64,000 nt of DNA from contig JAAEQR010000195.1 in NCBI GenBank assembly GCA_024231215.1, positions 142,755 to 206,754 of the forward strand, read 5' to 3'. This stretch comes from PVC group bacterium (GTDB lineage Bacteria; Omnitrophota; Gorgyraeia; B26-G9). A program made the position numbers and the translations under genes. The notes under the pieces are model-generated. The model did not search any database. It had not been told where the DNA came from and saw only the letters and a program-made list of their open reading frames with translations. Positions 4,315 through 28,134 of this stretch are shown in pieces; positions within the stretch are counted from its first letter, which is position 1; each line of letters starts with the position of its first letter.

Positions 4315-4342
4315 TTGACATAATTTTTATTACTAGTATAAT
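4315..4342 (+). promoter_or_regulatory. Sigma70-like promoter candidate (TTGACA-16nt-TATAAT) ending 9 nt before the MarR ATG, implying a leaderless or near-leaderless transcript for the cluster
   Basis: ttgaca 4315-4320, tataat 4337-4342, ATG at 4351. No SD sequence intervenes. Confidence 0.4.
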
Positions 4343-4350
4343 ATTGTTCA

Positions 4351-4713
4351 ATGAGTGAACATAAATTGAATGAAGATACTTTAAAGATCATAAAAGAAAT
4401 AGAGTCTTGCTCAACTCTCAACCAACGTTTTCTGTCTACGAAACTTGGCATATCATTAGGTAAAACCAATTACCTATTAAAAGAACTTATCAAAAAGGGT
4501 TTAGTCAAAATCCATAATTTTTCTCATGGTAAAAATAAAATCATCAAAGTAGGATATAGTCTTACTCCAAAAGGAATAGAAGAAAGACTGCGTCTTACAT
4601 ATCACTTTCTAAAGAGAAAAGAATTAGAGTATGACCAGCTTAAAAAAGAATGGGAAGATATGACTAAAGGGGTTCAAATTTATCAGGAAAATAAAGAAGC
4701 TGTAGAGTTGTGA
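4351..4713 (+). CDS. MarR-family winged-helix regulator of the EPS-associated subtype (first gene of the glycan locus)
   Basis: 120 aa: LNQRFLSTKLGISLGKTNYLLKELIKKGLVKIHNF...YSLTPKGIEE. Size and wHTH pattern match the MarR-type regulators found at the head of exopolysaccharide loci. Confidence 0.65.
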   Translation: MSEHKLNEDTLKIIKEIESCSTLNQRFLSTKLGISLGKTNYLLKELIKKGLVKIHNFSHGKNKIIKVGYSLTPKGIEERLRLTYHFLKRKELEYDQLKKEWEDMTKGVQIYQENKEAVEL

Positions 4714-4734
4714 TGGTTAAGGGGGAGCTAAAAA

Positions 4735-5376
4735 ATGGAAAAACAGAACATAATCTTAGTTGGCGGCGGCGGACATTGCCGGGCTTGTATTGATGTTATT
4801 GAGGCGCAATTCAGATACAGAATTGTTGGGATAGTTGATGCCAAAGAAATGATGCATAAGAAGGTTTTAGGGTATGAAATCATTGGTTGCGAGCAGGATT
4901 TGCCGAAATTACTTGATGGTTGTGACAATTTTTTTATCACAGTCGGGCAGATTAAAACTGCCGATGTAAGGATAGAGAAGTTTGAATATTTGAAAAAATT
5001 AGGAGCGAAATTCCCGGTAATAATATCCCCTTCTGCCTATGTAGCTGATTCTGCTCGGATTAGTGAGGGGACAATAGTAATGCATGGTGCGGTTGTAAAT
5101 GCGCAGGCAGTGGTTGGGAAAAATTCCATTAGTAATACTGGAGCGATAATAGAACATGATGCAAGTATCGGTGATTATTGTCACATAGCAACCGGAGCAG
5201 TTGTGAATGGAGAATGTGTTATCGGAGAACGAGTGTTTATTGGGAGTAATAGTGTTATTTCAAATGGCGTTAATGTTGAGAGTAATGTTGTGATTGGTGC
5301 AGGTTCCACAGTTATTAAAAGCATTCTTGAGTCGGGAACATATGTGGGCAATCCAGCTAGAAAAGTGAATGGTTAA
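4735..5376 (+). CDS. NeuD/PglD-family sugar N-/O-acetyltransferase (N-terminal Rossmann-like domain plus left-handed beta-helix)
   Basis: MEKQNIILVGGGGHCRACIDVIE... N-terminal domain followed by hexapeptide repeats (IGDYCHIATGAVVNGECVIGERVFIGSNSVI). Confidence 0.75.
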   Translation: MEKQNIILVGGGGHCRACIDVIEAQFRYRIVGIVDAKEMMHKKVLGYEIIGCEQDLPKLLDGCDNFFITVGQIKTADVRIEKFEYLKKLGAKFPVIISPSAYVADSARISEGTIVMHGAVVNAQAVVGKNSISNTGAIIEHDASIGDYCHIATGAVVNGECVIGERVFIGSNSVISNGVNVESNVVIGAGSTVIKSILESGTYVGNPARKVNG

Positions 5377-5390
5377 TACTAAAGGAGTAA

Positions 5391-7504
<2,114 letters not shown>

Positions 7505-7557
7505 GCAAGAGAATCTTAATAATATAAAAGTGTATGTTTTATGCAGGAGGAGTTGTT

Positions 7558-8598
7558 ATGCAGAAAAATATTTTGGGTCCAGTAGATCAGTTTTATTTAA
7601 TTGGAGGAGGAAGGCTTCTTTTTGAATTATCTGTTTGGCTAAAGTCCCAAGGAATTAAGGGGAGCATTATTGCTGCTGAGCGTCATGCGAAAGAAGAAGT
7701 TCTTGAGGATGATAGGACCTTAGAGCAATTAGCGAAAGAAGCACAGATAGAGATACATATAATAGAAGATATAAATAATATTCCCGATAATTCTAAAAGG
7801 ATCAATTTTACGGATACAAGCTTTGCTCTTTCTCTAGGCGCTGCGTGGATATTTAAAGAGCAGACAATAGAGAAACTTTTTAAAAACAGGTTGTTTAATT
7901 TGCATGGGTCAAGGCTGCCTCAATATCGTGGTGGTGGGGGCTTTTCTTGGCAGATATTACGAGGCAATCGCTTGGGGTTTTGTCTGATCCATTTTATAGA
8001 TGGGGGTGTAGATACAGGCAATATTTTAAAATATGAGGAGTTCTTATATCCTGCAGATTGTAGGATACCTTTAGATTACGAAGAGTGTTATAGAAAAAAC
8101 AATCTAGAATTTATGCAGAAGCTATTTAAAAAATTAGTGAAAGGGTCCATAACATTTCAACCAGTAGCACAACAGGAATATTTTTCTGCTTATTGGCCTA
8201 GATTGCATTCGCCGACACATTCCTGGATTGACTGGTCAATGCCTTTAAATGAGTTAGATAGATTTATTTGTGCTTTTGATGATCCCTATTGTGGAGCGCA
8301 AACTACTAGTGACGGGTCTTTGGTTTACTTAAAAAAGACTATGACAGATAATAATGATGGTAATTTTCATCCATTTCAATATGGTTTAGTTTACCGAAAT
8401 AATGGGAAATGGCTTTCTGTTGCTGCAAATGGTGGGACTATTATTATCCAAAGTGTTACCGGCAAGGATGGACAGGATTTGATTAGATCGATTAAGTCGG
8501 GTGACAGATTTTTTACTCCTGTCGAAAAACTTGAAGAAGCTTGTAGTCAACGTATCTTTTATACCCCTAGGGGATTATGCGAAGGAAGGAAGCCTTAG
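7558..8598 (+). CDS. Formyltransferase-fold protein (Formyl_trans_N-like N-terminus plus C-terminal extension); candidate sugar N-formyl/acyl transferase
   Basis: FNLHGSRLPQYRGGGGFSWQILRGNRLGFCLIHFIDGGVDTGNI resembles the N.HxSLLPxYRG...HxxxxxxDxG core of Fmt/ArnA-like formyltransferases. AGGAGGA RBS before the ATG at 7558. Confidence 0.55.
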   Translation: MQKNILGPVDQFYLIGGGRLLFELSVWLKSQGIKGSIIAAERHAKEEVLEDDRTLEQLAKEAQIEIHIIEDINNIPDNSKRINFTDTSFALSLGAAWIFKEQTIEKLFKNRLFNLHGSRLPQYRGGGGFSWQILRGNRLGFCLIHFIDGGVDTGNILKYEEFLYPADCRIPLDYEECYRKNNLEFMQKLFKKLVKGSITFQPVAQQEYFSAYWPRLHSPTHSWIDWSMPLNELDRFICAFDDPYCGAQTTSDGSLVYLKKTMTDNNDGNFHPFQYGLVYRNNGKWLSVAANGGTIIIQSVTGKDGQDLIRSIKSGDRFFTPVEKLEEACSQRIFYTPRGLCEGRKP

Positions 8599-8623
8599 AG
8601 GCGTTCACAAGACGGAGGATATA

Positions 8624-9940
8624 ATGAATAATACTAAAAATCTTAATATGCAGGAGCGTGCAAAAAAACGTATGCCTGGGATGACGCAGCTTCTTTCTAA
8701 AAGGCCGGATCAGTTTTCTTTGGGTGTTTGGCCGGGATATTATAGTAAAGCAAAAGGTGCAGAGGTATGGGATCTGGATGGGAATAAATATTTGGATATG
8801 AGTATTGGTGGTATTGGAGCTAATATTCTTGGTTTTGCTGATGATGATGTTAACGCGGCGGTTTATAAGGCAATTAAAAATGGATCAAGTTCCTCTCTTA
8901 ATTCTCCGGAAGAAGTAGAGCTTTCTGAATTGCTTTGCGAGATTCATCCCTGGGCGGATAAGGTCAGATATGCGCGTACCGGGGGAGAGGCAATGGCTGT
9001 TGCAGTCAGAATTGCCAGGGCGTCTACTGGCCGGGATAAAGTCGCCTTTTGTGGTTACCATGGCTGGCATGATTGGTATCTTTCGGCTAATTTAGGCACT
9101 GAGAATGCATTAGGGGAACATCTTCTCTCTGGATTGGATCCTTTGGGAGTACCAAAAGGTCTTACTGGGACGTCTTTTCCGTTTACTTATAATAAAATAG
9201 AAGAGCTTAGGGATATTGTTGCCAAGCATGGCAATGAAATAGCGGCAATAGTTATGGAACCGATACGAGATGATGCGCCTGATGCTGATTTTGTTGACGA
9301 AGTACGGGCTATTGCCGATAAAATAAAAACGGTTTTGGTCATTGATGAAATTTCTGCCGGATTTCGTTTAAATACCGGAGGCTCACACCTGCTTTATAAT
9401 ATAAAACCGGATATAGCGGTTTTTTCAAAAGCCTTGGGTAATGGCTTTCCTGTAGCGGCTATTATCGGAAAAGAAAAAGTTATGGATGCTGCGCAAAAAA
9501 CATTTATAAGCAGCACAATGTGGACAGAGTGTATTGGACCAACAGCTGCATTGGCAACAATTAAAAAACATAAAGCATGTAATGTGGCTGAGCATCTTAT
9601 TTCTATTGGAAGTAGTGTTCAGGAAGGATGGAAAACACTTTCTAAAAAACATGGCCTAAAAATTCATGTAGGAGGAATTGCTCCTATTAGTCATTTTTCT
9701 TTTGAATATAATAATGCCATGGTTTTAAAAGCATTTTTTGTTCAGTTGATGCTAGAGAGAGGATTTTTGGCTTCTACTTTATTTTATTCTATGTATGCGC
9801 ATCAAACGGCGCATGTTAACAGTTATCTACAGTCAGTTGATGAGGTATTCGCTATTATTGCAAATGCAAATCAAAAAGGAGAAGTAGAGACTAAATTAAA
9901 AGGCAAACCAGCAACTGCCGGTTTTAAGCGGATTACATAG
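8624..9940 (+). CDS. Class III PLP aminotransferase, glutamate-1-semialdehyde aminomutase-like
   Basis: GSA-AT-like motifs (YARTGGEAMAVAVRIARASTGRDKVAFCGYHGWHDWYL; DEISAGFRL; FSKALGNGFPVAA). GGAGG RBS before the ATG at 8624. The upstream overlap of the track ORF is not supported. Confidence 0.7.
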   Translation: MNNTKNLNMQERAKKRMPGMTQLLSKRPDQFSLGVWPGYYSKAKGAEVWDLDGNKYLDMSIGGIGANILGFADDDVNAAVYKAIKNGSSSSLNSPEEVELSELLCEIHPWADKVRYARTGGEAMAVAVRIARASTGRDKVAFCGYHGWHDWYLSANLGTENALGEHLLSGLDPLGVPKGLTGTSFPFTYNKIEELRDIVAKHGNEIAAIVMEPIRDDAPDADFVDEVRAIADKIKTVLVIDEISAGFRLNTGGSHLLYNIKPDIAVFSKALGNGFPVAAIIGKEKVMDAAQKTFISSTMWTECIGPTAALATIKKHKACNVAEHLISIGSSVQEGWKTLSKKHGLKIHVGGIAPISHFSFEYNNAMVLKAFFVQLMLERGFLASTLFYSMYAHQTAHVNSYLQSVDEVFAIIANANQKGEVETKLKGKPATAGFKRIT

Positions 9941-9958
9941 AGTGAAGGGTTTTATTAT

Positions 9959-10864
9959 ATGAACGAATCTTCTTGTTCGATAGTTTTAGGTACCGTACAG
10001 CTTGGTTTTTCTTATGGGATAGCTAATAAAACAGGCCAGCCGGATCAGGAAACAGTCAATAACATTGTGCGTATAGCCTGGAAACAGGGTATAAGAGAGT
10101 TTGATACGGCTCAGGATTATGGAGTAAGCGAGCAGGTTCTTGGGATTGCTTTTGAAAAACTGGGTATATCATCGCAGGCAAGGGTTATCAGTAAGATAGA
10201 TCCTGAAATAGATCATTGTGATCGGGAAGTGATGGTTAAAGCAGTTGAAACATCTTTGACAAAAATGTGTATACCAAATCTTTTTGGCTTAATGCTACAC
10301 AAAGAAGAATTGTTGGAACAATGGTCAAAAGGATTAAAAGATATATTTCTTGGATTTAGAACTTCAGGAAAAGTTAAAAAACTGGGGGTGTCTGTGTATT
10401 CACCGGATAAAGCGGAAGAGGCTTTGAATCTAGAAGGGATTGATCTCGTACAGATTCCCTCCAATATCCTGGATAGAAGATTTGAAAGAAAAAATATTTT
10501 TGAGCTCGCTAATACGAAAAAAAAACAGATTTATATAAGAAGTGTTTTTTTACAGGGTCTTATCCTTATGGGAGAGGGAGAAATCCCTGACTATATGCTT
10601 TTCGCAAAACCAATTATTGATAAGATAAAGCAGCTTTCTTTAAAGTTGAATATGTCTAAACAGGAGCTGGCTTTATTATATTTAAAACAAAAAGCTCCTG
10701 ATGCAAAACTGGTTATCGGATCAGAAACAAGTCAACAGGTCATGAAAAATGTTGATTGCTGGAGGAAAGATGCTTCGAAGGAGCTGGTTTCATCTGTATC
10801 AGAGACCTTTGACCAGGTGGATGAAAAGATTCTTAATCCGTCGTTATGGAGAAGTAAATCATGA
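9959..10864 (+). CDS. Aldo/keto reductase family oxidoreductase
   Basis: LGTVQLGFSYGIANKTGQPDQETV...REFDTAQDYGVSEQVLG typical AKR N-terminus. About 300 aa. Confidence 0.7.
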   Translation: MNESSCSIVLGTVQLGFSYGIANKTGQPDQETVNNIVRIAWKQGIREFDTAQDYGVSEQVLGIAFEKLGISSQARVISKIDPEIDHCDREVMVKAVETSLTKMCIPNLFGLMLHKEELLEQWSKGLKDIFLGFRTSGKVKKLGVSVYSPDKAEEALNLEGIDLVQIPSNILDRRFERKNIFELANTKKKQIYIRSVFLQGLILMGEGEIPDYMLFAKPIIDKIKQLSLKLNMSKQELALLYLKQKAPDAKLVIGSETSQQVMKNVDCWRKDASKELVSSVSETFDQVDEKILNPSLWRSKS

Positions 10865-12654
10865 TAATTACGTTTATTCAGGCCAGAATGTCTTCAACCC
10901 GTTTTCCGGGTAAAGTGCTTAAACATATACTGGGCAAACCAATCCTGCAATTACAGATTGAGAGAGCCCGGGCCTGTAAAACCGTAGACAAAGTAGTTGT
11001 GCTTACCAGTATTTCTGAAGATGACCGGCCGATTGTGGATATGTGTAAAAAGATTAATGTGGATTTTTTTTGCGGCAGTCTGGAAAATGTTTTGGATAGA
11101 TTTTATCAGGCGGCAGTAAAGTTTAAACCGGATCATATTATTCGCCTGACAGGAGATTGCCCTTTAATTGATGCCAAAGTTATTGATGATATGGTTAAGC
11201 TCTATTTAAAAGAAGAAGGAGATTATGGTACCAATTGTGTTCCCGTAACTTATCCGGATGGATTAGATGCGGAGATTCTTACATTTAAAGCACTTCAAGT
11301 CGCGCATACTGAGGCAGTGCTTCCGTCTCATCTGGAGCATTTAAGCCTCTTTTTTGAGGAACAGTCGGAGCGTTTTAAAATAGTGAATTTGGCAAATAAT
11401 ACTGATCTTTCTTCGCTGCGCTGGACAGTAGACGAATCAGAGGATTTCGAATTTGTAAAGGCAATATTTGAGGAACTCTATCCTAAAAAACCCTTATTTT
11501 GCATGCAGGATGTTCTGGACTTGCTCAAAAGAAGGCCTGAGCTGATTTTGCTTAATAATCGTTTTAACAGGAATGAGGGGCTGTTTAAATCAAAAGAACA
11601 AGATAATGTTTTTCTTGAAGGGAAAACTTCAACTAATATGTCTAATACTGTTTCGATTTTATTCAGAGTGGATGTGTATGAAAAATTGGGGTTGGGACAC
11701 TTGTCCCGGTGCAGGTCATTAATGGCGGCTTTTTTGCATTACTCCGAATGTCAATTTGCGGTATTAAGCAATAATGAAACAGTGGTTAGAGAGTTTATCC
11801 CAAATATTGCGTTTGATTTTTACCATAACCGTAATGAACTGAAAAATACTAATTTTGATATTCTAATAGTGGATGTGCCTGATATCGCGTCTGGAGAAGA
11901 TGAAGATTTCCGGGGAGTGGCAAAATTAGTTGTTTGTATCGAGGATGCAGGCCGGGGCTTAAGTTATCAGAATATTCTTATTCGTCCGAATCTGCTTAAT
12001 TTACCGATAAGTCCTAATCTGAAAATAGCAAAGAATAATTACTGGTCGGGACGGGATTATATAATTTTGCATAATGATTTTGCGAAACAGGTTGTTCGTA
12101 ACGATGTGCCTAAAGAAAAAGCCGAAGAGTTACTGCTCTGTTTCGGCGGTAGTGACCCTTGTGGATTGACTTTACGTGCAATACCGCTGTTTAAAGAGCT
12201 TGAAGGTAATATTAGTTTTCATGTAGTGATTGGTCCAGCATTTTCATGGAAGGATGAGGTTTCTTCTATAATCAATGATGATGCTCGTTTTCATTTAAGC
12301 ATTAACTGCCAGAATATGGCAGAACATTTTTCTAAAGCGGATATCGCTTTAATTAGCGGAGGCACAATGCTCTATGAGGCTTGTGCGATGGGAACACCTG
12401 CGTTAGTTTTTTCGCAAAACCAAGAGCAGGAGATTGAAGCCAAAATATGCCAGGCAGCAGGGGCGGTTGCGAGCCTTGGTGTAAGTAAGTCTGTTTCAGA
12501 TGATAAAATTTTTAGTGCGGTAAAGAAAATTATCAGGGATACCGATTTGCGGTTGAATATGGCAAAAGCAGGGCCTAAAATTGTATCCTCTGACGGAGCC
12601 GCGCACATTGTGTCTAGTTTACTTAAATATATCAAAAAAGAGAGCATAAAATGA
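10861..12654 (+). CDS. Fusion protein: SpsF/FlmC-like cytidylyltransferase domain plus PseG/SpsG-like UDP-2,4-diacetamido-2,4,6-trideoxy-L-altropyranose hydrolase domain (CMP-nonulosonic acid activation)
   Basis: N-terminal IITFIQARMSSTRFPGKVLK...LTGDCPLID (CMP-KDO-synthetase-like nucleotidyltransferase fold). C-terminal LLCFGGSDPCGLT...ISGGTMLYEACAMGTPALV (GT28-C/PseG-like). Confidence 0.7.
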   Translation: MIITFIQARMSSTRFPGKVLKHILGKPILQLQIERARACKTVDKVVVLTSISEDDRPIVDMCKKINVDFFCGSLENVLDRFYQAAVKFKPDHIIRLTGDCPLIDAKVIDDMVKLYLKEEGDYGTNCVPVTYPDGLDAEILTFKALQVAHTEAVLPSHLEHLSLFFEEQSERFKIVNLANNTDLSSLRWTVDESEDFEFVKAIFEELYPKKPLFCMQDVLDLLKRRPELILLNNRFNRNEGLFKSKEQDNVFLEGKTSTNMSNTVSILFRVDVYEKLGLGHLSRCRSLMAAFLHYSECQFAVLSNNETVVREFIPNIAFDFYHNRNELKNTNFDILIVDVPDIASGEDEDFRGVAKLVVCIEDAGRGLSYQNILIRPNLLNLPISPNLKIAKNNYWSGRDYIILHNDFAKQVVRNDVPKEKAEELLLCFGGSDPCGLTLRAIPLFKELEGNISFHVVIGPAFSWKDEVSSIINDDARFHLSINCQNMAEHFSKADIALISGGTMLYEACAMGTPALVFSQNQEQEIEAKICQAAGAVASLGVSKSVSDDKIFSAVKKIIRDTDLRLNMAKAGPKIVSSDGAAHIVSSLLKYIKKESIK

Positions 12655-13346
12655 TTGTCGTGATTATGCAACCGACATATCTGTCCTGGTCGGGTTATTT
12701 TGACATGATGGATAATGCTGATGTGTTTGTCCTCCTGGATACAGTGCAGTTTGAAAAACAGGCATGGCAGCAGCGTAATCGAATTAAAATCACAGAAGGT
12801 CAGTCTAAATGGCTAACTGTTCCGGTAGTGCAAAATCTGGGGCAGAAAATAAGCGATGTCCAAATCAAAAACTCAGAACCCTGGAGCAGGAAACACTGGG
12901 GAACAATAGAGCAATTTTATAAACAAACAGAGTATTGGAAAACATATAAAGAAGATTTGGCGCAGATATATTTAAAGGATTGGGATAAGCTTGCTGAGTT
13001 AAATATCGCTTTGATAAATTTCCTTAAAGAAAAATTTAATATTTCAACTAAGCTGCTCAGAGCATCGCAGCTACAGGTTTCAGGTGAAAAAGTCAGGTTA
13101 TTAGTAGACATTTGCCATGATTTAAAAGCAGATGTCTATATGTCAACACCGCGCGCTGCTGATTATCTAGAGCATAACAATATTTTTGCTGAAGAGGGGA
13201 TTGCTTTGAAGTACCATCAGTACGAACCTTCTATATATAGGCAGCTGCATGGAAAGTTTTTGCCCTATATGTCAGCACTTGATCTACTGTTAAATGAAGG
13301 GCCGAGAAGTCTTGAGATTATCCGCTCCGGGCGGATTAGAGGTTGA
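12651..13346 (+). CDS. WbqC-like family protein
   Basis: MIVVIMQPTYLSWSGYFDMMDNADVFVLLDTVQFEK... matches the conserved WbqC-family N-terminus (MQPTYLPW.GYFDL). Confidence 0.8.
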   Translation: MIVVIMQPTYLSWSGYFDMMDNADVFVLLDTVQFEKQAWQQRNRIKITEGQSKWLTVPVVQNLGQKISDVQIKNSEPWSRKHWGTIEQFYKQTEYWKTYKEDLAQIYLKDWDKLAELNIALINFLKEKFNISTKLLRASQLQVSGEKVRLLVDICHDLKADVYMSTPRAADYLEHNNIFAEEGIALKYHQYEPSIYRQLHGKFLPYMSALDLLLNEGPRSLEIIRSGRIRG

Positions 13347-13374
13347 ACAGCCTGCAAATATTAAAAAGGAAAAA

Positions 13375-14076
13375 ATGAACAAAAGAACATACATTGTAGC
13401 GACTATAAGAGAATGGAATATTTCTGCTTTCAAAGATGTTATAAGTAAGTATCCAGGTACCTGGCATTTGATAACAGATAAAAAAGAATTAACAATTAAA
13501 AGAATAAAACAGATAAAACCGCGGTATATTTTCTTCCCTCATTGGAGTTTTAAGGTGCCGAATGTGATAACAGAGTTTAGCGAATGTGTTTGTTTCCATG
13601 AGACAGAGGTGCCTTTTGGACGCGGGGGCAGCCCCATACAAAATCTGATTATGCGGGGATATGAAAAGACAAAAATATCCGCTTTAAAAATGACAAAAAA
13701 ATTAGATGCAGGACCTGTGTATCTAAGAAGAGATTTAGGATTAGATGGACTGGCGGAAGAAATTTTCATAAGGTCTTCAAAAATAATAGCTGGAATGATA
13801 AAAGAGATAATTCATAAAGAACCGTTACCTAAGGCACAGAAAGGAGAAATCGTGGTGTTTAAAAGGCGTACCCCGGAACAAAGTGTTATGACTAAAAAGC
13901 TGAAGAGTTTAGATGAAGTGTTTGATTTTTTACGGATGCTAGATGTCGCGGAATATCCCCGGGCATTTTTTGAGCGTGATGGATTAAGGTATGAGTTTTC
14001 CAGGCCGGCGCTTAGAACAAGCGCTATTGAAGCCGATGTTCGCATTACAAAGTGTAAAAACAGGAGCAAGAAATGA
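13375..14076 (+). CDS. Formyltransferase-fold protein (second copy, short form), typical partner of WbqC-like genes
   Basis: PHWSFKVPNVI...CFHETEVPFGRGGSPIQNLIMRG...KKLDAGPVY resembles the Formyl_trans_N core. The internal ATG at 13375 avoids overlapping wbqC. Confidence 0.55.
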   Translation: MNKRTYIVATIREWNISAFKDVISKYPGTWHLITDKKELTIKRIKQIKPRYIFFPHWSFKVPNVITEFSECVCFHETEVPFGRGGSPIQNLIMRGYEKTKISALKMTKKLDAGPVYLRRDLGLDGLAEEIFIRSSKIIAGMIKEIIHKEPLPKAQKGEIVVFKRRTPEQSVMTKKLKSLDEVFDFLRMLDVAEYPRAFFERDGLRYEFSRPALRTSAIEADVRITKCKNRSKK

Positions 14077-14771
14077 TCTTAGAAAATTATAATAAAATAT
14101 TAACGTTTTTCGCTCATCCTGATGATGAGACCTTGGCCGCCGGAGCTACTATTTCCAGGCTTAGCAGTTTAGGCGCAAAGGTGCATATAGCTATTCCTGC
14201 AACAGGTATTCACGGGCGTCGAAATTCATCCTCAAGGCAGTCAAGAAATAATGAACTTGCTAAATTAAGAAAAGATTGTCAAAAAGCCTGTGCCGCGTTG
14301 GGTGTTGATAATAAGCATATTTATCTGGGAGAATTTGCCGATAATGAAATGGACAAGAGTTCGTTGCTTGAAGTTATTAACTGGTTTGAAGACATAATTG
14401 CTAAGGTTAAGCCGGATTTGATTCTTACTCATCATCGGTATTGCACGAACATAGATCATCAGTACTCTCATCAGGCCGCGATAGTTGCTTCAAGGCCGGC
14501 GGCAAACAGTCATATTCCGATATTATGCGGAGAGGTTCCCAGCAGCACAGGATATCTAAAGCCTGTTCAATGGGAGCCGAATTTATATGTTGAAGTAACC
14601 GAAAAGAATGTAGAAGCAAAAATCTGCGCGATGCAGTTATATGAAGGGGAGGCTCGTCCGGATCCTCATCCCCGGTCACCGGAGGTATTAAAGGCTTTGG
14701 CAAAAGTGCGCGGTTCTGAATCCGGATTTATGTTCGCGGAAGCATTTATGATCCAGCGCATATTTAGCTGA
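14073..14771 (+). CDS. PIG-L/LmbE-family N-acetyl-sugar deacetylase
   Basis: ILTFFAHPDDETLAAGATISRL...LTHHRYCTNIDH (HPDDE plus H..D.H zinc-hydrolase motifs). Confidence 0.8.
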   Translation: MILENYNKILTFFAHPDDETLAAGATISRLSSLGAKVHIAIPATGIHGRRNSSSRQSRNNELAKLRKDCQKACAALGVDNKHIYLGEFADNEMDKSSLLEVINWFEDIIAKVKPDLILTHHRYCTNIDHQYSHQAAIVASRPAANSHIPILCGEVPSSTGYLKPVQWEPNLYVEVTEKNVEAKICAMQLYEGEARPDPHPRSPEVLKALAKVRGSESGFMFAEAFMIQRIFS

Positions 14772-14790
14772 GAGAAAGCACAAAAAATTC

Positions 14791-15864
14791 ATGTATATAA
14801 CTATAAACAATAGAAAGATTGGGAAAGGTAAGACTGTATATATTATTGCTGAGTTGTCGGCTAATCATAATCAAAGCATAGATAAAGCTATAAAGCTGAT
14901 CGAAGTAGCCAAGCAGGCAGGTGCTGATGCCGTAAAAATACAGACTTATACCGCTGATACCATGACCATTGATTCTGATAAAGAATGGTTTCAGATCAAA
15001 GGGACAATTTGGGAAGGGAATAATCTATATAAATTATATCAGGAGGCATTTACTCCTTGGGAATGGCAGTCACAGTTAAAACAAGTTAGCGAGAAGCTGG
15101 GGCTTGATTTCTTTTCTACCCCGTTTGATGTTACGGCAGTGGATTTTTTGCAGGGATTGAATGTCCCGGCATATAAGATTGCTTCATTTGAGCTTGTGGA
15201 TATCCCGCTGTTGAAAAAGATTGCGATTACTGGTAAGCCGGTGATTATGTCTACAGGAATGGCGACTCTAGAAGAAATAGACGAGGCAGTACAGACGCTT
15301 GTCTTAGCGGGTAATAAACAGCTGGTATTGCTCAAATGCACAAGCGCATATCCGGCAGCTGCCCAAGAGATGAACTTAAATGCCATTAGCTATATTTCAG
15401 AGAAATACAAAGTACCGGTTGGTCTTTCCGATCATACACTGGGCAGCGCTGTTGCTGTGGCTGCGGTTGCGTTAGGGGCATGTATTATTGAAAAACATCT
15501 CACCTTGACCCGCAAAGATCCGGGGCCTGATGCGACGTTTTCAATGGAACCCGCGGAATTTAAATCTATGGTTGATGATATAAGAATCGTAGAAAAGGCC
15601 TTGGGGAAAGTATCTTTTGAAGTGACGGAAAAGGAGAAAGAAAATCGTGTATTCCGCCGGTCATTGTTTGTAGTTAAAGATATTAAAAAAGGCGAGACTT
15701 TTTCTGCAAAAAATATACGTTCCATACGGCCGGGGCATGGATTGCACACAAGATATTTAGAGCAAATTTTAGACAAAAAAGCAGTCAAAGACATAGAAAA
15801 AGGGACGCCGCTGAACTGGAATTTAGTGGAAGGGTGTAATCGGGATGAGAAAGGCAGAGCATAA
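14791..15864 (+). CDS. pseI: Pseudaminic acid synthase (NeuB family, with C-terminal SAF/antifreeze-like domain)
   Basis: KTVYIIAELSANHNQSIDKAIKLIEVAKQAGADAVKIQTY...PAYKIASFEL...STGMATLEEIDEAV...GLSDHTLG. The C-terminal SAF domain is FSAKNIRSIRPGHGL. Confidence 0.85.
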   Translation: MYITINNRKIGKGKTVYIIAELSANHNQSIDKAIKLIEVAKQAGADAVKIQTYTADTMTIDSDKEWFQIKGTIWEGNNLYKLYQEAFTPWEWQSQLKQVSEKLGLDFFSTPFDVTAVDFLQGLNVPAYKIASFELVDIPLLKKIAITGKPVIMSTGMATLEEIDEAVQTLVLAGNKQLVLLKCTSAYPAAAQEMNLNAISYISEKYKVPVGLSDHTLGSAVAVAAVALGACIIEKHLTLTRKDPGPDATFSMEPAEFKSMVDDIRIVEKALGKVSFEVTEKEKENRVFRRSLFVVKDIKKGETFSAKNIRSIRPGHGLHTRYLEQILDKKAVKDIEKGTPLNWNLVEGCNRDEKGRA

Positions 15865-16869
15865 ATGATAAATGTTAATACACGAAACATCTCTCCGGAG
15901 GTTGCAGGTACGGATAAGCAACTGGGGCTGGTATTTAATGATAAAAAGTGGATTGAATACCGTAGAAAATGGGATGAAAACCCTAAACAGGGAATTGTGG
16001 AAAAGGTTCCATTGCAGATTGATCTATTTGCGGTTGATATATGCAATTTAAAATGCCCGATGTGTCCAAGGCAGGCATTTATCCCCGGAAAAGGATATAT
16101 GGATACAAAATCAATAAAGAGAATCCTGGATCAGGGGGCAGAGCATGGATTATGTGCCTTTAATTTTTCCGGATTGGGTGAGCCGACCTTACATCCTGAT
16201 GTGTTGGAAATTATCAGATATGCAAAGGAAAAAGGTGTTGTTGATGTGAATATGCATACAAATGGAACGCGTTTAGGCGCTGAATTCAATAAAAAGCTGC
16301 TTGAATCAGGGCTGGACAGGCTTATTGTTTCGCTTGATAGTGCGGATAAACAAAGATATGAGAGTATTCGTATAGGAGCAAGCTTTGAAAAGGTTTATGC
16401 CGGGGTTGAGGATTTGATTAAACAACGAAATGACCATAAGAGTGCAAGATTGCATATTAAAGCTAACTTTATAGAAATGGATGAAAAAGATGATACTGAA
16501 AAAAATAAGTTTATAACGTATTGGAAGGGCAAGGTCGATAGGATCGCAGTGTTGCGTTATCTTGATTGTAAGGATGTGGAGAGGCTTTTTTGGAAAGAAA
16601 ACTATGTTCAGGATAATGATTTTTGTTGTCCTGAACTATGGCGCAGATTGATAATCCTGAGTGATGGCACGGCAACTCTTTGCCCCAGAGATATGCAAAA
16701 GCATCATATAATCGGAAATGTCAACGACAAAACCATTTCAGAGATATGGACAGGGGAAAAGATTCAAAAGATTAGAGATATGCACCGGAAAGGTTGTTTT
16801 AAAGAGCTGGGTTTTTGTGCGGATTGTCCTGATTCTTATGATAAAAAGAAAGATGAGCAGAAAAAATGA
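15865..16869 (+). CDS. Radical SAM enzyme with C-terminal SPASM-type auxiliary cluster domain (paralog 1)
   Basis: CNLKCPMCP CxxxCxxC motif. C-terminal CCPELW...SDGTATLCP...GCFKELGFCADCP cysteine pattern typical of SPASM. Confidence 0.75.
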   Translation: MINVNTRNISPEVAGTDKQLGLVFNDKKWIEYRRKWDENPKQGIVEKVPLQIDLFAVDICNLKCPMCPRQAFIPGKGYMDTKSIKRILDQGAEHGLCAFNFSGLGEPTLHPDVLEIIRYAKEKGVVDVNMHTNGTRLGAEFNKKLLESGLDRLIVSLDSADKQRYESIRIGASFEKVYAGVEDLIKQRNDHKSARLHIKANFIEMDEKDDTEKNKFITYWKGKVDRIAVLRYLDCKDVERLFWKENYVQDNDFCCPELWRRLIILSDGTATLCPRDMQKHHIIGNVNDKTISEIWTGEKIQKIRDMHRKGCFKELGFCADCPDSYDKKKDEQKK

Positions 16870-17879
16870 AAAGGAATTGGAAAATAAAATCAGGGGTTTT
16901 AACAAAGATAAAAAATCTTTATAAAAAAGGTGGATTAAATCCCAGGTTTTATGCGTATCGCTATTGTTTCAATAGCTATCCTGATAATTTCAAGATCAGC
17001 AAATATCCATTTGATATAATTGCGGAGGCTTCTAATGTTTGCAACCTGAGATGCTCCATGTGCTTTCAGGTCGATGATGAACTTCCGGTTCGGACAACGA
17101 CAAAAGTTCCTTTCATGAAGATGAATTTGTTTAAAAAAATTACTGATGAATGTGCGAAATATAAGGTACCTGCTTTAAAATTAAGTTGGCGGGGTGAGCC
17201 AATGTTAAATGAAAACTTCACAGAAATGATCAGATATGCAAAATCCAAAGGGATCTTAGAGGTTACGTCTTTAACTAATGCGACATTAATGCATGAAAAT
17301 ATTTGCCGGGAAATTGTATCTGCAAAAATGGATCAGATTGTTATTTCCATAGATGGTTTTACAAAAGAGACATATGAAAAAATCAGGATTGGTGCTGATT
17401 ATGACGTTGTGTGTAATAATATAAAAAATTTACTTAAAATAAGAGGAAAGTCAAACAAGCCTTTTATTAGATTGCAATATACGGAATCTGATATAAATAA
17501 GCATGAAACAGAGAGATTTTATCATTATTGGAAAGATAAGGTCGATGAAATAACTGTGTCGTATTGTCAGGATTTTGGCTCTACTGAGAAGATTGATCCC
17601 GAGGATATTCCGGCACATAGCTTTGTTTGCAAACAGCCTTTTCAGCGCTTGGTTATTATGACTGACGGGACTGTTTGTGTTTGCGCTACAGATGTTATGG
17701 GTGAAATTTCAATAGGCAATATCCAGGACTCAAAGCTTATAGATTTATGGAATTGTTCTAAAATTAATGAGCTTCGCCAACAGCATAAGGCAGGGAAATA
17801 TCAGCATAATCCAATGTGTCGTATTTGCGTGCATAATGTATTCATGGCCAACAAAAATGCGGGTCTTTCTGTTAAATAA
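16866..17879 (+). CDS. Radical SAM enzyme with C-terminal SPASM-type domain (paralog 2)
   Basis: CNLRCSMC motif. C-terminal CKQPFQRLVIMTDGTVCVCATDVMGEI...CSKIN...CRICVH. Similar length and architecture to the upstream gene. ATGA start/stop overlap. Confidence 0.75.
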   Translation: MKRNWKIKSGVLTKIKNLYKKGGLNPRFYAYRYCFNSYPDNFKISKYPFDIIAEASNVCNLRCSMCFQVDDELPVRTTTKVPFMKMNLFKKITDECAKYKVPALKLSWRGEPMLNENFTEMIRYAKSKGILEVTSLTNATLMHENICREIVSAKMDQIVISIDGFTKETYEKIRIGADYDVVCNNIKNLLKIRGKSNKPFIRLQYTESDINKHETERFYHYWKDKVDEITVSYCQDFGSTEKIDPEDIPAHSFVCKQPFQRLVIMTDGTVCVCATDVMGEISIGNIQDSKLIDLWNCSKINELRQQHKAGKYQHNPMCRICVHNVFMANKNAGLSVK

Positions 17880-17917
17880 TCTTAATGTAAGAAATTAAAT
17901 CAGGCAATGACCAATAA

Positions 17918-19747
17918 ATGGATAATAGGCTTTATATTTTAGATAAGAAATATCGAAATGTATTTATAACTCAGAATCGGGATAGTTGGAATGTTTGTCC
18001 TTTTGAATTTGATAAAGATAAAGATTTGGTTCTTTCTTTCGACTTTGCAGTTGTTAATGAAGTCAGACAGACAGGGGGGCAGGCTTATTATATTGATCAT
18101 CTGGTAAATAGCCAATTGATGGAAGAATATAATCACAAAATGTATGAATTTTTTGCTAAATGGCATAAAAATTTATTAGGCAAGGATATTTTTAGCTATA
18201 AAGGTATGGATGTTGCGAGTGCCTTTAGGATCGAAATATGGAATGATCTTACTTTTTATATGCGGATATTAGTCAATCTACATGAATTGTTCAAAAAAAT
18301 CAAGCCTGAGAATGTGTATGTGGGAATAGAGAATCAAATAGTTAGGGAGGTTATTGGGGGGCTTAATATTAAGGTTGTTTTCTGGAATGCGCCAGAAAAC
18401 AAAAACAGTACTGAATATTATTTCCCGATTTTTAGATGGATGGATGAAGCTCTGCACCCTGCTGATTTTAAACACAAGGTTAGGTTGTTTGTTTTTAAGA
18501 TATTTGGATCAATATCAAGTTTTATTAAAAAAATCAAGTTTAATAAAAATAAAAAGCAGATATATGTTGAGTGGTATCATCCGACAAATGACATAATTAG
18601 AGAGTTGAAAAGGGAAAATAAGGTTGAAATAGTTCGCAGTGGGTTTAATTGTATCCAGGATATGTTTAACAGTGTGTATTTACCGGCAGCTAGTTTCTCG
18701 GGCAGCAGATGCTATAAGCTTGAGACAGAGAAAATGCTTAAAAATTTTGATAAGGAAAAATGCGCGACATTAAGTATTGATGACATTGATATGAGTAATG
18801 AGATTTATAAGTTGATCATTAAAAGAGTTTCACCTTTAATCCCTAGATCTTTACTGACTGTAGACATTATAATGAAGTTTTTTGCAAAAAAAAAGCTGAG
18901 TCTTATGATTACGGTTGCAAGTATTGGGCTTATAAATAGATTGATGATTAATTACTGCATCAAGGCAGATATACCTGTGTATATGATTATTAACGGCTGG
19001 CTGGGCAATTCTTTTCTTGATGAAGCTAAAGATGGTACATGGATAAATTCTTATAGTGAATCCGTTAAGAAAAATTATTTTAAGGGTATGAAAAATGTTA
19101 TTTGTTTAGGAGATCCTAGGATGGATAAATATGTTAATTGTCTTAAAAAAAAATATAGTGACTATGAAAATCCGACTATTGGTATCGGGGCAGCCGGATT
19201 TACTAATGTTGATTTGAATTGTTATGTAGCAATTGAATGGGAGTTTTTAAATGATATAATGCAGGTTTGTAAAAAAATAATAACCTCTGGCAAAAAGATG
19301 AGTATTATAATAAAAGTTCGTCAAAACGGTTATATACAGCAATATCGGAATTTTCTGGACGAGTATTATTCTGATGTACCAGTCGTTCTTGAGGATTCGG
19401 TCTCGATAGAAGAAGTATATAAAAAAGCTGATTTTTTTATATCCATTTATTCTCAAAGCTTATTCGAGGCATCCTGTTATGGATTGCCGGTTTTGTATTA
19501 TAAAAATGATACTCAGTATTTTGACCCTCCCTTTGACGGTAATTCTGAGCTTATTACGGCGATGACTCCGGATGATCTCAGGCAAAAGATCGAGGCTTTT
19601 TACAATAAAGATGCAATGTATGATAAATTTAAAGAAAAGAAAGTAATGGAAAAGTATATAGGATTGTTAGATGGACAAAATCTAAAGCGAAATATGGATT
19701 TTATATATTCTTTTATAGAAGATAAAAAACAGGCTCAGGCAAATTGA
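17918..19747 (+). CDS. Hypothetical 609-aa protein; C-terminal half resembles GT-B-like TagF/KpsS-type transferases (candidate nonulosonic-acid or glycerol-phosphate transferase)
   Basis: No N-terminal match recognised. C-terminal ...ADFFISIYSQSLFEASCYGLPVLYYKNDTQYFDPPFDG... resembles the TagF-like / Capsule_synth ...DYSS..FD.A.L.KP.IFY.PD.. region. Confidence 0.3.
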   Translation: MDNRLYILDKKYRNVFITQNRDSWNVCPFEFDKDKDLVLSFDFAVVNEVRQTGGQAYYIDHLVNSQLMEEYNHKMYEFFAKWHKNLLGKDIFSYKGMDVASAFRIEIWNDLTFYMRILVNLHELFKKIKPENVYVGIENQIVREVIGGLNIKVVFWNAPENKNSTEYYFPIFRWMDEALHPADFKHKVRLFVFKIFGSISSFIKKIKFNKNKKQIYVEWYHPTNDIIRELKRENKVEIVRSGFNCIQDMFNSVYLPAASFSGSRCYKLETEKMLKNFDKEKCATLSIDDIDMSNEIYKLIIKRVSPLIPRSLLTVDIIMKFFAKKKLSLMITVASIGLINRLMINYCIKADIPVYMIINGWLGNSFLDEAKDGTWINSYSESVKKNYFKGMKNVICLGDPRMDKYVNCLKKKYSDYENPTIGIGAAGFTNVDLNCYVAIEWEFLNDIMQVCKKIITSGKKMSIIIKVRQNGYIQQYRNFLDEYYSDVPVVLEDSVSIEEVYKKADFFISIYSQSLFEASCYGLPVLYYKNDTQYFDPPFDGNSELITAMTPDDLRQKIEAFYNKDAMYDKFKEKKVMEKYIGLLDGQNLKRNMDFIYSFIEDKKQAQAN

Positions 19748-19786
19748 ACGCTTTGAGTCGAAAACTACAATGTAAAGTGTTGATTT

Positions 19787-21307
19787 ATGTCAATTAAAAA
19801 AAAATCAGTTTTTAAAATTCTTACAAATATTGTGACTTTGCTTGTCGGGTTAGTGACTCAAGGCATTATACCGCGTACTTTAGGGCCGGCAGCATATGGT
19901 AATTTTTCTTTTCTCACTAATTTTTTCTTTTCTATATGCGGTTTTCTGAATTTAAATTCATCAACTGTTTTTTTTACTAAATTATCACAGAGACCTAAAG
20001 CAAAAGGACTGATTCGTTTTTATATGCATTTTCTGGCTTTCATTGCGCTTATAATTGCCATTTTTTTGTCCGGAAGCATTGTCTTTGGTCTAAAATCTGT
20101 TTTTTGGCCAGGGCAGCGTACTGTATTTATAATTTTAGCTGCGATTTTGGGTGTTTTCACATTTTATGATATGGTTTTTAAAGATATGTGTGATGCATAT
20201 GGGATTACTATAAAGGCTGAGCTTATTAAAATAGCTCTTAAGGTTATTGGATTGGGTCTAATCTTATTTTTGTTTTGGAAAAAGAGTCTTAATTTAGGAA
20301 CTTATTTTTCTTATCACATATTTATTCTTTTGTCAACGATAGGTTTTCTTATTTTCCTTATACATAAAAGCGGCCACTCATTGTTCAGCGGATTTATCGC
20401 TAAAAAAGATGAGTTTGAACCTTATTATAAAGAGTTTTCTAAAGTATGCTTTCCTTTATTCTTTTTTTTGTCTCTAGCTCTAATTGGACAGATATTTGAC
20501 CGCTGGTTTTTGCAGAAGTTTTCCGGAAGTGTTGATCAAGGGTATTATTCTTTTGCTTTTCAGGTAGGCAATCTTTGCATGCTTTTCACCAGTGCTATTA
20601 TGCCTCTTGTTTTACGGGAACAGTCGATACATTTCGGAAATATGGATTTTGAAAAATTAAGAAATGTTTTCTCACGTTCTATAAGCATTTTGGTAGCTTT
20701 AACTGCTTTTATATGTTGTTTTCTCGCTGTGGAATCTCAGACAGTTATTAATATCTTTGCTGGAAAGGCTTATTCTGCTGCTTTTGTACCCATGGTATTA
20801 ATGTGTTTGTTCCCAATTCATCGTACATACGGACAGTTGAATGGGAATTTCTTTTTTGCATCAGATAGAGTTCATATCTATCGAAATATAGGTATCGTAT
20901 TCACGCTTTTGGGAGTTGTTTTTACTTTTTTCTTACTGGGACCTCAAAAATATGGAGGGTTTAATCTGGGAGCAAATGGACTTTCTTTTAAAATGATGGG
21001 ATTGCAGGTGATCAGCGTTAATGTGCAGCTTTGGTTTAATGCAAAATACTTAAAATATTCTTTTAAAACACTTTTTTTGAATCAGATCGGGACGATAATT
21101 GTTTTTCTGGGCTTGTCGGGAATATCATCTGGCTTTGCAAGAGCGATATTCCCAAATTTAGCTCCAGTCATCCATTTTTGTTTAAGCGGGACAGTATACG
21201 TTATAATATGTTTTGTGGTTTTTAACTGTTGGCCGGAAACTATGGCTTTAAAGAAAACTGATGTTAATCAGTTAAATATATTTATCAAAGAGAAACTTGG
21301 CAAGTAA
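19787..21307 (+). CDS. MOP-superfamily polysaccharide flippase (Wzx-like), multi-pass membrane protein
   Basis: 506 aa, about 12-14 hydrophobic segments. N-terminal ...ILTNIVTLLVGLVTQGIIPRTLGPAAYGNFSF... typical of Wzx / polysaccharide biosynthesis protein family. Confidence 0.65.
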   Translation: MSIKKKSVFKILTNIVTLLVGLVTQGIIPRTLGPAAYGNFSFLTNFFFSICGFLNLNSSTVFFTKLSQRPKAKGLIRFYMHFLAFIALIIAIFLSGSIVFGLKSVFWPGQRTVFIILAAILGVFTFYDMVFKDMCDAYGITIKAELIKIALKVIGLGLILFLFWKKSLNLGTYFSYHIFILLSTIGFLIFLIHKSGHSLFSGFIAKKDEFEPYYKEFSKVCFPLFFFLSLALIGQIFDRWFLQKFSGSVDQGYYSFAFQVGNLCMLFTSAIMPLVLREQSIHFGNMDFEKLRNVFSRSISILVALTAFICCFLAVESQTVINIFAGKAYSAAFVPMVLMCLFPIHRTYGQLNGNFFFASDRVHIYRNIGIVFTLLGVVFTFFLLGPQKYGGFNLGANGLSFKMMGLQVISVNVQLWFNAKYLKYSFKTLFLNQIGTIIVFLGLSGISSGFARAIFPNLAPVIHFCLSGTVYVIICFVVFNCWPETMALKKTDVNQLNIFIKEKLGK

Positions 21308-24077: not shown

Positions 24078-24089
24078 TAGGAGGTTATT

Positions 24090-24314: not shown

Positions 24315-24344
24315 ATACAGAAGGATAATAGCAGTCTGGGATAT

Positions 24345-25253: not shown

Positions 25254-25266
25254 AGGTTCATTTATT

Positions 25267-26706: not shown

Positions 26707-26732
26707 TGAATAAACAAATCCAAAGGCGCTGA

Positions 26733-27326: not shown

Positions 27327-27334
27327 AATAGATT

Positions 27335-28132: not shown

Positions 28133-28134
28133 AT

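Follow-up and report, generated by a model that had tools for sequence, protein, structure and literature searches.

N-formylated pseudaminic acids (Pse), including Pse5Ac7Fo and Pse7Fo5(3RHb), occur in nature, and the characterised enzyme PseJ is an experimental precedent for the use of formyl in a PseH-type step (PMC11040635; PDB 6CI2). Here, we compared this and other described systems with a locus in a 64,000-nt stretch of DNA from an uncultivated PVC-group bacterium (the window; plain coordinates are window positions, and L-numbers denote related loci). Between pseC and pseI, this locus carries seven co-directional, translationally coupled genes encoding a two-domain formyltransferase (Fmt1), a class III aminotransferase (AT3), an aldo/keto reductase (AKR), a cytidylyltransferase-PseG fusion, a WbqC-family protein, a short formyltransferase-like protein (Fmt2), and a PIG-L-family deacetylase. 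The block is the middle of one operon for a pseudaminic-acid-type surface sugar, and the operon lies in a large exopolysaccharide (EPS)/O-antigen locus. We propose, with a probability of roughly 0.55, that the operon core (~4351-17879) makes a CMP-activated pseudaminic-acid-type nonulosonate with non-standard N-substituents, in which PIG-L and Fmt2 would edit an N-acetyl group, WbqC would act separately, and AT3/AKR would carry out an amination. The additional enzymes most likely exchange or introduce N-substituents, with formyl in place of acetyl and possibly one more amino group.

In the PseJ route to 7-N-formyl Pse (PDB 6CI2/6CI4), a formyltransferase-fold enzyme of the Pse cluster stands in place of PseH, as we propose for Fmt1. 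PseJ is a single-domain protein of ~190-217 aa, whereas Fmt1 is 346 aa long, carries an Fmt/ArnA-type domain at its C terminus, and resembles PseJ no more closely than it resembles ArnA. The window further differs in encoding another formyltransferase-like protein, a deacetylase, WbqC, and AT3/AKR. PseJ is said to come from Anoxybacillus kamchatkensis and to have been described by Reimer et al. in 2018. The Arn pathway (ArnB/ArnA/ArnD; lipid A Ara4N) follows the same logic as the window, in that a DegT-type 4-aminotransferase is followed by an N10-formyltetrahydrofolate-dependent transformylase acting on the UDP-4-amino sugar and later by N-deacylation by a metal hydrolase; the ArnB model matched the window PseC at 3e-102. 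However, the sugar and end product differ, ArnD belongs to PF01522 and not to PIG-L, and the formyl group is transient in Arn but probably retained in the window.

Kuenenia, which belongs to the PVC superphylum, offers a third comparison. Its CMP-nonulosonates were measured with one free amine and one N-formyl group, and its cluster holds a deacetylase and a formyltransferase (bioRxiv 10.64898/2026.04.20.719630). In Candidatus Kuenenia stuttgartiensis, these two genes are described as lying between the early genes and neuB, as in the window; the authors call the cluster legionaminic-type, and WbqC, AT3, and AKR are not mentioned (bioRxiv 10.64898/2026.04.20.719630). Among solved proteins, PDB 1ZGH (a structural-genomics "methionyl-tRNA formyltransferase" of family PF21553) is a direct Fmt2 homologue of the same short architecture, in which the catalytic Asn is also lost; it has no assigned function or ligand. 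WbpB/WbpE, KdnB/KdnA (Kdo8N), and the aminoglycoside C-6' dehydrogenase/aminotransferase place an oxidoreductase next to a pyridoxal phosphate (PLP) aminotransferase in a sugar pathway, like AKR and AT3. The likeness to these hydroxyl-to-amine couples is one of logic only, the oxidoreductase in the window being an AKR. No description was found in the searchable literature of an ArnA-like two-domain enzyme in the PseH slot, a strict pairing of 1ZGH-type and PIG-L genes in Pse clusters, the genomic behaviour of WbqC, or the AT3/AKR module.

Fmt1 in the PseH slot and the Fmt2/PIG-L pair

Window proteins were scanned with Pfam and NCBIfam profiles at family and equivalog cut-offs. A sequence-only reading of the window had predicted the folds of the pseC-pseI block, and all seven genes were found on the + strand at or close to where it had placed them, with matches far beyond chance. 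PseB, PseC, and PseI all exceeded equivalog cut-offs. Homology at this level shows PseB and PseC as the pair predicted to yield UDP-4-amino-4,6-dideoxy-beta-L-AltNAc, and PseI as the enzyme predicted to join the free sugar to phosphoenolpyruvate. The PseG-like domain, which forms the C-terminal part of the fusion, scored below its equivalog cut-off (Table 1) and contains the histidine of the GxGHxxR motif, which we take from C. jejuni PseG to be the catalytic residue. PseG of two representative minimal loci (L044 and L048) passed the equivalog cut-off. The PseF model TIGR03584 was not reached by the window cytidylyltransferase (33.7 bits, cut-off 205.7), whose domain is of the SpsF/KdsB-like CTP_transf_3 type. 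With no other cytidylyltransferase found in the window, this domain probably does the job of PseF, acting as CMP-nonulosonate synthetase. No GNAT model, including that of PseH (TIGR03585), was matched among the proteins scanned from 4351-15864.

The same reading had put Fmt1 in the position of the N-acetyltransferase PseH, and the sister loci agree with this. The closest loci share the order PseB-PseC-X-AT3-AKR-CTP/PseG-WbqC-Fmt2-PIG-L-PseI (CTP, cytidylyltransferase), in which X differs between loci. X is Fmt1 in the window and in L001 (an orthologue with 40% identity) and a GNAT of ~175-195 aa in L002 and L084, two of the three sister loci of the same architecture. For these GNATs, PseH TIGR03585 was the best or second-best NCBIfam match at 46-49 bits, not reaching the cut-off of 93.1. 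L086 has no X gene and carries a GNAT just before WbqC instead. Fmt1 passed both PF00551 (33.7 bits, cut-off 26.1) and PF02911 (33.7 bits, cut-off 21.1), and its best NCBIfam matches were the formyltransferase PRK06988 (1.8e-17) and ArnA (1.3e-15). ArnA was also its best solved match (1e-10), with PseJ (PDB 6CI2) at 1.3e-9. The Fmt1 segments FNLHGSRLPQYRG and GVDTG align with N102/H104/D140 of ArnA, leaving the Asn-His-Asp triad intact, and the HxSLLPxxRG loop is present. The exchange of Fmt1 for a PseH-like GNAT after PseC is the best evidence that Fmt1 carries out the PseH step with formyl, and because of it Fmt1 is a probable enzyme of the PseH/PseJ-type step, predicted to give a 7-N-formyl group.

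Fmt2 differs from Fmt1. Both had been read as PF00551/PF02911 proteins, which held for Fmt1, whereas Fmt2 matched neither model and gave PF21553 as its only Pfam hit, with PF00551 below threshold and NCBIfam Fmt and ArnA at ~1e-7. The PF08889 (WbqC) and PF02585 (PIG-L) assignments were both confirmed. In an alignment of 32 family members, Fmt2 His75, Asp111, and the LP..GRGGSP loop were invariant, and the catalytic His and Asp are kept in both formyltransferase-fold proteins; the position of the catalytic Asn in Fmt2, however, is a conserved Cys73 (at least 90% of the clade), and the Asn-His-Asp triad is incomplete. The corresponding residue is Val in 1ZGH, a protein presumably from Clostridium thermocellum. 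The Cys makes formyltransferase activity of Fmt2 less certain than had been assumed, and, judged by its sequence, Fmt2 is not a canonical formyltransferase.

The PIG-L gene overlaps that of Fmt2 by 4 nt, indicating translational coupling. The metal-binding motifs of PIG-L, AHPDDE (residues 14-19) and IDHQ, align with diacetylchitobiose deacetylase, and its best relatives (BshB, MshB, and diacetylchitobiose deacetylase) all attack 2-acetamido groups. By analogy with these characterised relatives, the most likely target of PIG-L is the GlcNAc-derived 2-N-acetyl group, the future N5. A literature search on LmbE in Pse pathways gave nothing useful.

To sample the context of Fmt2, which has 3487 homologues, 83 loci were collected by three contig look-ups and a metagenome scan; for PIG-L, 58 loci had enough sequence. 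PIG-L directly followed Fmt2 in 53 of these 58 and was at most 2.5 kb away in 57, and PseI lay within 2.5 kb downstream in 24/39. The gene immediately upstream of Fmt2 was WbqC in only 4/41 loci and a GNAT-domain open reading frame (ORF) in 14/41, mostly ORFs of ~500 aa that also match PseG (apparent PseG-GNAT fusions). These results indicate that the recurrent unit is the near-obligate Fmt2/PIG-L pair and not the trio of WbqC, Fmt2, and PIG-L that the sequence-only reading had called a recurrent association; both genes occurred in only two of the 80 WbqC loci described below.

Among the complete Fmt2 loci without WbqC, 9 of 11 also carry a GNAT or a formyltransferase. On a plasmid of the cultured Synechococcus NIES-970, the order is PseB-PseC-CTP-PseG-hypothetical-PseH-like-Fmt2-LmbE-NeuB, and the gene just upstream of Fmt2 in L114 and L120 encodes a canonical sugar N-formyltransferase of the WlaRD/VioF type (PF00551 + PF18216). 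Fmt2/PIG-L is thus usually added to Pse sets that already possess a PseH-like GNAT or a canonical formyltransferase, which gives it the look of an add-on deacetylation/formylation cassette. The most economical reading is a coupled cassette editing an N-acetyl group, and the earlier idea that an N-acetyl group is replaced fits the combination of deacetylase and formyltransferase. Fmt2 was also considered as a replacement of PseH and rejected, since Fmt2/PIG-L loci nearly always have a PseH-like GNAT or a canonical formyltransferase as well.

Further arrangements were seen around Fmt2. In L135 (9247-9984) and L139 (9067-10002), Fmt2 is directly preceded by a tandem 1ZGH-type paralogue with 25-29% identity to it, and L146 and L149 give similar matches. 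In L081 (4459-20405), the run Fmt2-PIG-L-CTP-ATP-grasp-DUF354-hexapeptide transferase-NeuB lies between two flagellin genes and a gene for a 1471-aa MptE/Maf-like protein, a setting indicating that the cassette also serves flagellin glycosylation.

WbqC and the AT3/AKR module

The AF2 model of WbqC had a pLDDT of 94.9; no PDB match was obtained by Foldseek or profile search, and a literature search gave no functional study. A WbqC-seeded scan of one genome per GTDB species gave 431 relatives, of which the best 80 loci were kept, and genes within 10 kb of WbqC were counted. These 80 loci span more than 15 phyla, archaea included. A PseI-like gene was present in 72, PseC in 60, PseB in 54, CTP/PseG in 52, a PglD-like gene in 22, AT3 in 21, and AKR in 17, whereas Fmt2 and PIG-L were found only in L001 (Omnitrophota) and L002 (Planctomycetales). 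WbqC is thus independent of the Fmt2/PIG-L pair, and WbqC, Fmt2, and PIG-L all go with PseB/C/G/I and not with unrelated pathways, in keeping with the earlier assignment to this pathway.

WbqC usually lies between PseG and PseI. The order PseB-PseC-(MT)-CTP-PseG-WbqC-(MT)-PseI (MT, methyltransferase), with no other acyltransferase, was seen in 13 compact operons that belong to seven phylum-level lineages (Saccharibacteria, WOR-1, Myxococcota, Paceibacterota, Cyanobacteriota, Omnitrophota, and Acidobacteriota). As WbqC is usually the sole acyltransferase candidate in loci without AT3, a pattern in which a missing enzyme meets an orphan gene, it is a candidate N-acyltransferase and PseH analogue.

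Several other associations of WbqC were observed. A class I S-adenosylmethionine (SAM) methyltransferase (cluster c5) was present in 36/80 WbqC loci (e.g., L005, L029, L031, L048, L057, and L063) and may be the "Pse-associated methylase" TIGRFAM; methyltransferases also flank distant WbqC genes on Rhizobium, Azospirillum, and Solidesulfovibrio plasmids. Distant WbqC homologues adjoin rffA-type aminotransferases, a FemAB-like protein, and PIG-L as well. The grouping of a FemAB-like (aminoacyl-transferase-type) gene, WbqC, and a deacetylase recurs in L164 (Bacillus mycoides pBWB401, 11116-13374) and in Acidobacteriota (L044, L052, L058, L076, L078, and L080). The deacetylases are non-homologous, being PIG-L in Bacillus and PF01522 in Acidobacteriota, and the grouping hints at an aminoacyl-type N-substituent. 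A second type of WbqC cluster, found in several phyla and a Methanomicrobiaceae metagenome-assembled genome, contains AT3-(AKR)-CTP-PglD-like-PseG-like, a GH130-like beta-propeller protein, NeuB, and WbqC (L008, L009, L011, L019, L026, L027, and L074; WbqC at ~10001 in each). The NeuB of this type is only 35-40% identical to PseI, and neither PseB nor PseC was found within 10 kb.

AT3 and AKR had been read as enzymes that possibly aminate or reduce the acyl side chain, but nothing links them to such chemistry. The two constitute a widespread module of their own, and in other loci each can occur as a fusion with the cytidylyltransferase. AT3 was fused to CTP_transf_3 (SpsF-like cytidylyltransferase) in 3 of its top 120 matches, and long AT3 ORFs (~690-1030 aa) with an adjacent CTP match in L015, L017, L047, L070, and L079 are consistent with the same fusion. 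In L071 and L075, AKR is apparently fused to the cytidylyltransferase (long AKR ORFs of ~550-560 aa), as documented in a Vibrio Pse cluster (PMC7371886), and the same gene set occurs in Legionella serogroup 6/12 LPS (lipopolysaccharide) loci (PMC3694923). The oxidoreductase beside AT3 is either an AKR or a GFO/IDH/MocA enzyme (the latter in L015 and L017); in loci without AT3, AKR is paired with a short-chain dehydrogenase/reductase (SDR). Many loci carry AT3 and AKR without any deacetylase. AT3 has more than 8000 homologues, with 68-77% identity across Omnitrophota, Elusimicrobiota, Thermodesulfobacteriota, Chloroflexota, and Proteobacteria (P0242-P0360), and is clearly better conserved than PseC, WbqC, and Fmt2 of the same loci. 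It scored below every NCBIfam equivalog cut-off, and its solved relatives include aminoglycoside C-6' aminotransferases (~1e-39). A genuine HemL was rejected on the scores for TIGR00713 (207 bits, cut-off 527) and PRK06209 (257 bits, cut-off 486) and on the context, which is polysaccharide and not haem, leaving a class III enzyme with a different specificity. In AKR, residues matching the Asp-Tyr-Lys-His tetrad were readable by eye in the sequence itself.

Acyltransferase candidates (WbqC, GNAT, PglD-like, and canonical formyltransferase, with PIG-L-paired Fmt2 excluded) were counted in the 42 loci of both samples that have PseB, PseC, PseG, and PseI. Without AT3 (n = 28), exactly one candidate was present in 23 loci (WbqC alone in 15, GNAT alone in 7, formyltransferase alone in 1) and two in 5. 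With AT3 (n = 14), at least two candidates were present in 12 loci (Fisher p = 3.6e-5; WbqC-seeded and Fmt2-seeded samples, phylogeny being ignored). Of the two loci that fell short, L024 scored zero owing to an ORF-calling artefact, and tblastn shows WbqC and a PglD-like gene there. The extra acyltransferase of AT3 loci suggests that AT3 creates one more acceptor amine. Because of this and the cytidylyltransferase fusions, AT3/AKR would be better explained by oxidation followed by transamination (or by reduction) of the nonulosonate at about the activation step than by acyl side-chain chemistry.

Proposed pathway and competing explanations

In the pathway that we propose, Fmt1 would N-formylate the new 4-amino group instead of PseH, giving a future 7-N-formyl group like that made with PseJ. 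The PseG domain would strip UDP, and the fused SpsF-like domain would later form the CMP-sugar. PIG-L would remove an N-acetyl group, working with Fmt2 as a coupled cassette, and the freed amine may be re-formylated by Fmt2, left free, or passed to another acyltransferase. A NeuD/PglD-type gene that adjoins pseB on its upstream side, overlooked in the sequence-only reading and not present in sister loci L001 and L002, encodes a candidate acyltransferase for the 4-amino sugar or the freed amine. WbqC would be a separate acyltransferase-like enzyme, PseH-equivalent in many other lineages, serving here with the NeuD/PglD-type enzyme for additional amine(s). Most speculatively, AKR and AT3 would equip the nonulosonate with one more amino group, at C4 or C8, by oxidation and transamination, which would explain the surplus of acyltransferases. 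A bolder version, in which WbqC would be a new-fold N-acyltransferase replacing PseH in many environmental Pse pathways, AKR/AT3 would add a third amino group, and the product would be an undescribed tri-N-substituted, partly N-formylated nonulosonic acid, appears doubtful to us.

The earlier proposal that WbqC, Fmt2, and PIG-L replace an N-acetyl group as one trio while AT3/AKR tailor the acyl side chain is unlikely; such tailoring could, for example, yield a hydroxy- or amino-acyl donor such as 4-hydroxybutyrate, formed from gamma-aminobutyrate via succinic semialdehyde. The three genes are contiguous in the window, L001, L002, L083-L086, and L092, hydroxyacyl N-substituents exist on nonulosonates (PMC11040635), the extra acyltransferase of AT3 loci would also suit the installation of a special acyl group, and an acyl-supply block with FkbH, acyl carrier protein (ACP), and MaoC/SDR genes lies downstream. 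However, the neighbourhood counts separate WbqC from the pair, AT3/AKR often occur without a deacetylase and are fused elsewhere to a cytidylyltransferase and not to acyl-activating enzymes, no CoA ligase or ACP lies within the pseC-pseI block, and AT3 has structural relatives among sugar C-6' aminotransferases. It is also improbable that Fmt2 is instead a non-catalytic or differently catalytic partner of PIG-L, the pair only deacetylating or moving a non-formyl acyl group and WbqC or the NeuD/PglD-type enzyme re-acylating. Cys73 in place of Asn (Val in 1ZGH), the failure of the Pfam N-terminal formyltransferase model on the window Fmt2, and the Bacillus mycoides plasmid pBWB401, where WbqC lies beside a PIG-L gene without Fmt2, would fit such a partner; the invariant His75, Asp111, and loop argue for kept catalysis and folate-type binding, and the family is large and well conserved.

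Formylation of the amine by Fmt1, Fmt2, or both could also be transient and serve to protect it or to drive the route, pulling the PseC equilibrium and satisfying PseG and PseI, with PIG-L then removing the formyl or an acetyl group to leave a free amine on the finished sugar. In the Arn pathway, ArnD later removes the N-formyl group, ArnB and ArnA are among the nearest relatives of PseC and Fmt1, and the CMP-nonulosonates of Kuenenia carry a free amine. In Kuenenia, however, formyl persists on the other nitrogen, a driving step is unneeded in the loci, usual for Fmt2/PIG-L, that already have a PseH-like GNAT, and the known deformylase ArnD belongs to a family other than PIG-L, so that we regard transient formylation as rather improbable. 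Much less plausible still is that some of the accessory genes (those for WbqC, the NeuD/PglD-type enzyme, and AT3/AKR) belong to another amino sugar of this polysaccharide and not to Pse. The locus does encode a PglC-type initiating transferase, epimerases, and a PglF-like dehydratase, and rffA-type 4-aminotransferases without NeuB accompany distant WbqC homologues; yet the accessory genes are translationally coupled inside the pseB-pseI run, WbqC of this clade is accompanied by a PseI-like gene in 90% of its loci (72/80), and no second DegT-type aminotransferase was found in the window.

Several points weigh against the N-substituent editing that we favour. WbqC shows no recognisable acyltransferase fold or motif, several loci have it together with a GNAT fused or adjacent to PseG, and its distant homologues adjoin methyltransferases, so that it may catalyse something other than acyl transfer. 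Two seeded samples, uncorrected for phylogeny, underlie the co-occurrence statistics; the "minimal" genomes could carry PseH outside the locus, and the extra acyltransferases of AT3 loci could be O-acetyltransferases. Fmt2, lacking the catalytic Asn, may use another donor or be non-catalytic. PIG-L may attack one or another N-acetyl group, on the UDP-sugar, on the free sugar, on Pse, or on CMP-Pse, and the functions given here for all accessory proteins are predictions. No tri-amino nonulosonate was found in the searchable literature. Four candidate transferases for acyl or formyl groups are encoded in the window, and the number of amines that they would serve is uncertain, so that the exact product is not deducible from sequence.

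Locus layout, neighbouring genes, and significance

From 4351 to ~52200, all genes lie on the + strand in a single polysaccharide locus, which contains a MarR-EPS regulator, the Pse genes, a Wzx-like gene, numerous glycosyl-, methyl-, and acyltransferases, a PglC-type initiating transferase, and PglF-like, Wza, Wzi, and Wzz proteins. The spacing between genes is -4 to +53 nt throughout 4351-21307, indicating one operon-like run, and no credible terminator was found on the + strand up to 22000. Promoter-like sites as a class showed no enrichment relative to shuffles. The GC skew is positive in all 2-kb bins of the window (1-64000), and essentially all genes are on the + strand, consistent with a long leading-strand segment. 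The window WbqC, Fmt2, and AT3 proteins are 100% identical to deposited P0001, P0121, and P0241, respectively; the true AT3 start agrees with the 438-aa protein P0241. The features are listed in Table 1.

Table 1. Positions of the operon features in the window and the matches on which their names rest.
Feature	Position	Strand	Evidence
Promoter-like site TTGACA-16-TATAAT	4315..4342	+	12/12 sigma-70 consensus positions, just 5' of first locus gene; consensus match only
MarR-family EPS-associated regulator	4351..4713	+	TIGR04176 111 bits (cut-off 88); opens the one-strand polysaccharide locus
NeuD/PglB/VioB-family (PglD-like, hexapeptide) sugar N-acetyltransferase	4735..5376	+	TIGR03570 208 bits (cut-off 160.8); Pfam PglD_N + Hexapep
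PseB, UDP-GlcNAc 4,6-dehydratase (inverting)	5394..6374	+	TIGR03589 536 bits (cut-off 408)
PseC, UDP-4-amino-4,6-dideoxy-beta-L-AltNAc transaminase	6371..7504	+	TIGR03588 480 bits (cut-off 423.5)
Fmt1, two-domain ArnA/Fmt-type formyltransferase	7558..8598	+	Pfam PF00551 + PF02911, E ~4e-8 each
AT3, class III PLP aminotransferase, GSA-aminomutase-like	8624..9940	+	Aminotran_3 2e-41; PLP lysine present (FSKALGNG)
AKR, aldo/keto reductase	9959..10864	+	Aldo_ket_red PF00248 1.9e-24
SpsF-like cytidylyltransferase fused to PseG-like UDP-sugar hydrolase	10861..12654	+	CTP_transf_3 8e-30; TIGR03590 125 bits (cut-off 153.55); GLGHLSR motif
WbqC-family protein	12651..13346	+	PF08889 241.5 bits, 1.2e-71, model positions 1-217 of 218
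Fmt2, short formyltransferase-like protein, 1ZGH-related	13375..14076	+	PF21553 1e-16; PDB 1ZGH 1.9e-63 over 220 residues
PIG-L/LmbE-family zinc de-N-acetylase	14073..14771	+	PF02585 87 bits (cut-off 28.2), E 1.7e-24; AHPDDE + DH motifs
PseI, pseudaminic acid synthase	14791..15864	+	TIGR03586 504 bits (cut-off 340)
Two paralogous radical-SAM/SPASM genes	15865-16869 and 16866-17879	+	Pfam; abut pseI (0 and -4 nt spacing)

The two radical-SAM/SPASM genes had been overlooked in the sequence-only reading. They reached no NCBIfam equivalog, the best partial matches being tungsten-cofactor and spiro-SPASM maturases. Copies with 68-76% identity follow PseI in L001, L003, and L084, and a role as sugar dehydrogenase or epimerase is conceivable. 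Between these genes and the Wzx-like gene lies a 609-aa ORF (17918-19747) with no Pfam or NCBIfam match; Pse loci of Acidobacteriota repeatedly contain a 582-aa orphan (cluster c12) that is unrelated to this ORF, and either could be a Pse transferase. The acyl-donor supply block at 22296-29622 comprises an FkbH-domain protein (TIGR01686, 300 bits), a 74-aa ACP (24090-24314; PP-binding, DSL motif), a methyltransferase, a MaoC-dehydratase/SDR fusion, a WbbJ-like hexapeptide acyltransferase, another methyltransferase, and a B12-radical-SAM enzyme; it could supply a glycerate-derived, possibly methylated, acyl group. In L085 and L086, FkbH-like and MaoC/SDR-like genes (29% and 25% identity, tblastn) were found ~3.5 kb downstream of Fmt2/PIG-L.

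Pse with formyl, hydroxybutyryl, amidino, or free-amine substituents decorates flagella, capsules, and O-antigens and influences immune recognition and susceptibility to phages. For most N-substituents, the installing enzymes have been called "largely unknown" (PMC11040635). The window and 163 related loci give candidates for them: a strict PIG-L/1ZGH-type cassette that would edit the N-acetyl group derived from the sugar; an ArnA-like enzyme as a substitute for PseJ; WbqC, a widespread orphan family that behaves genomically like the missing PseH; and an aminotransferase/oxidoreductase module tied to the CMP-transferase. Confirmation of any of these candidates would aid the prediction of glycan structures from genomes and would provide enzymes for the chemoenzymatic synthesis of modified CMP-Pse donors.

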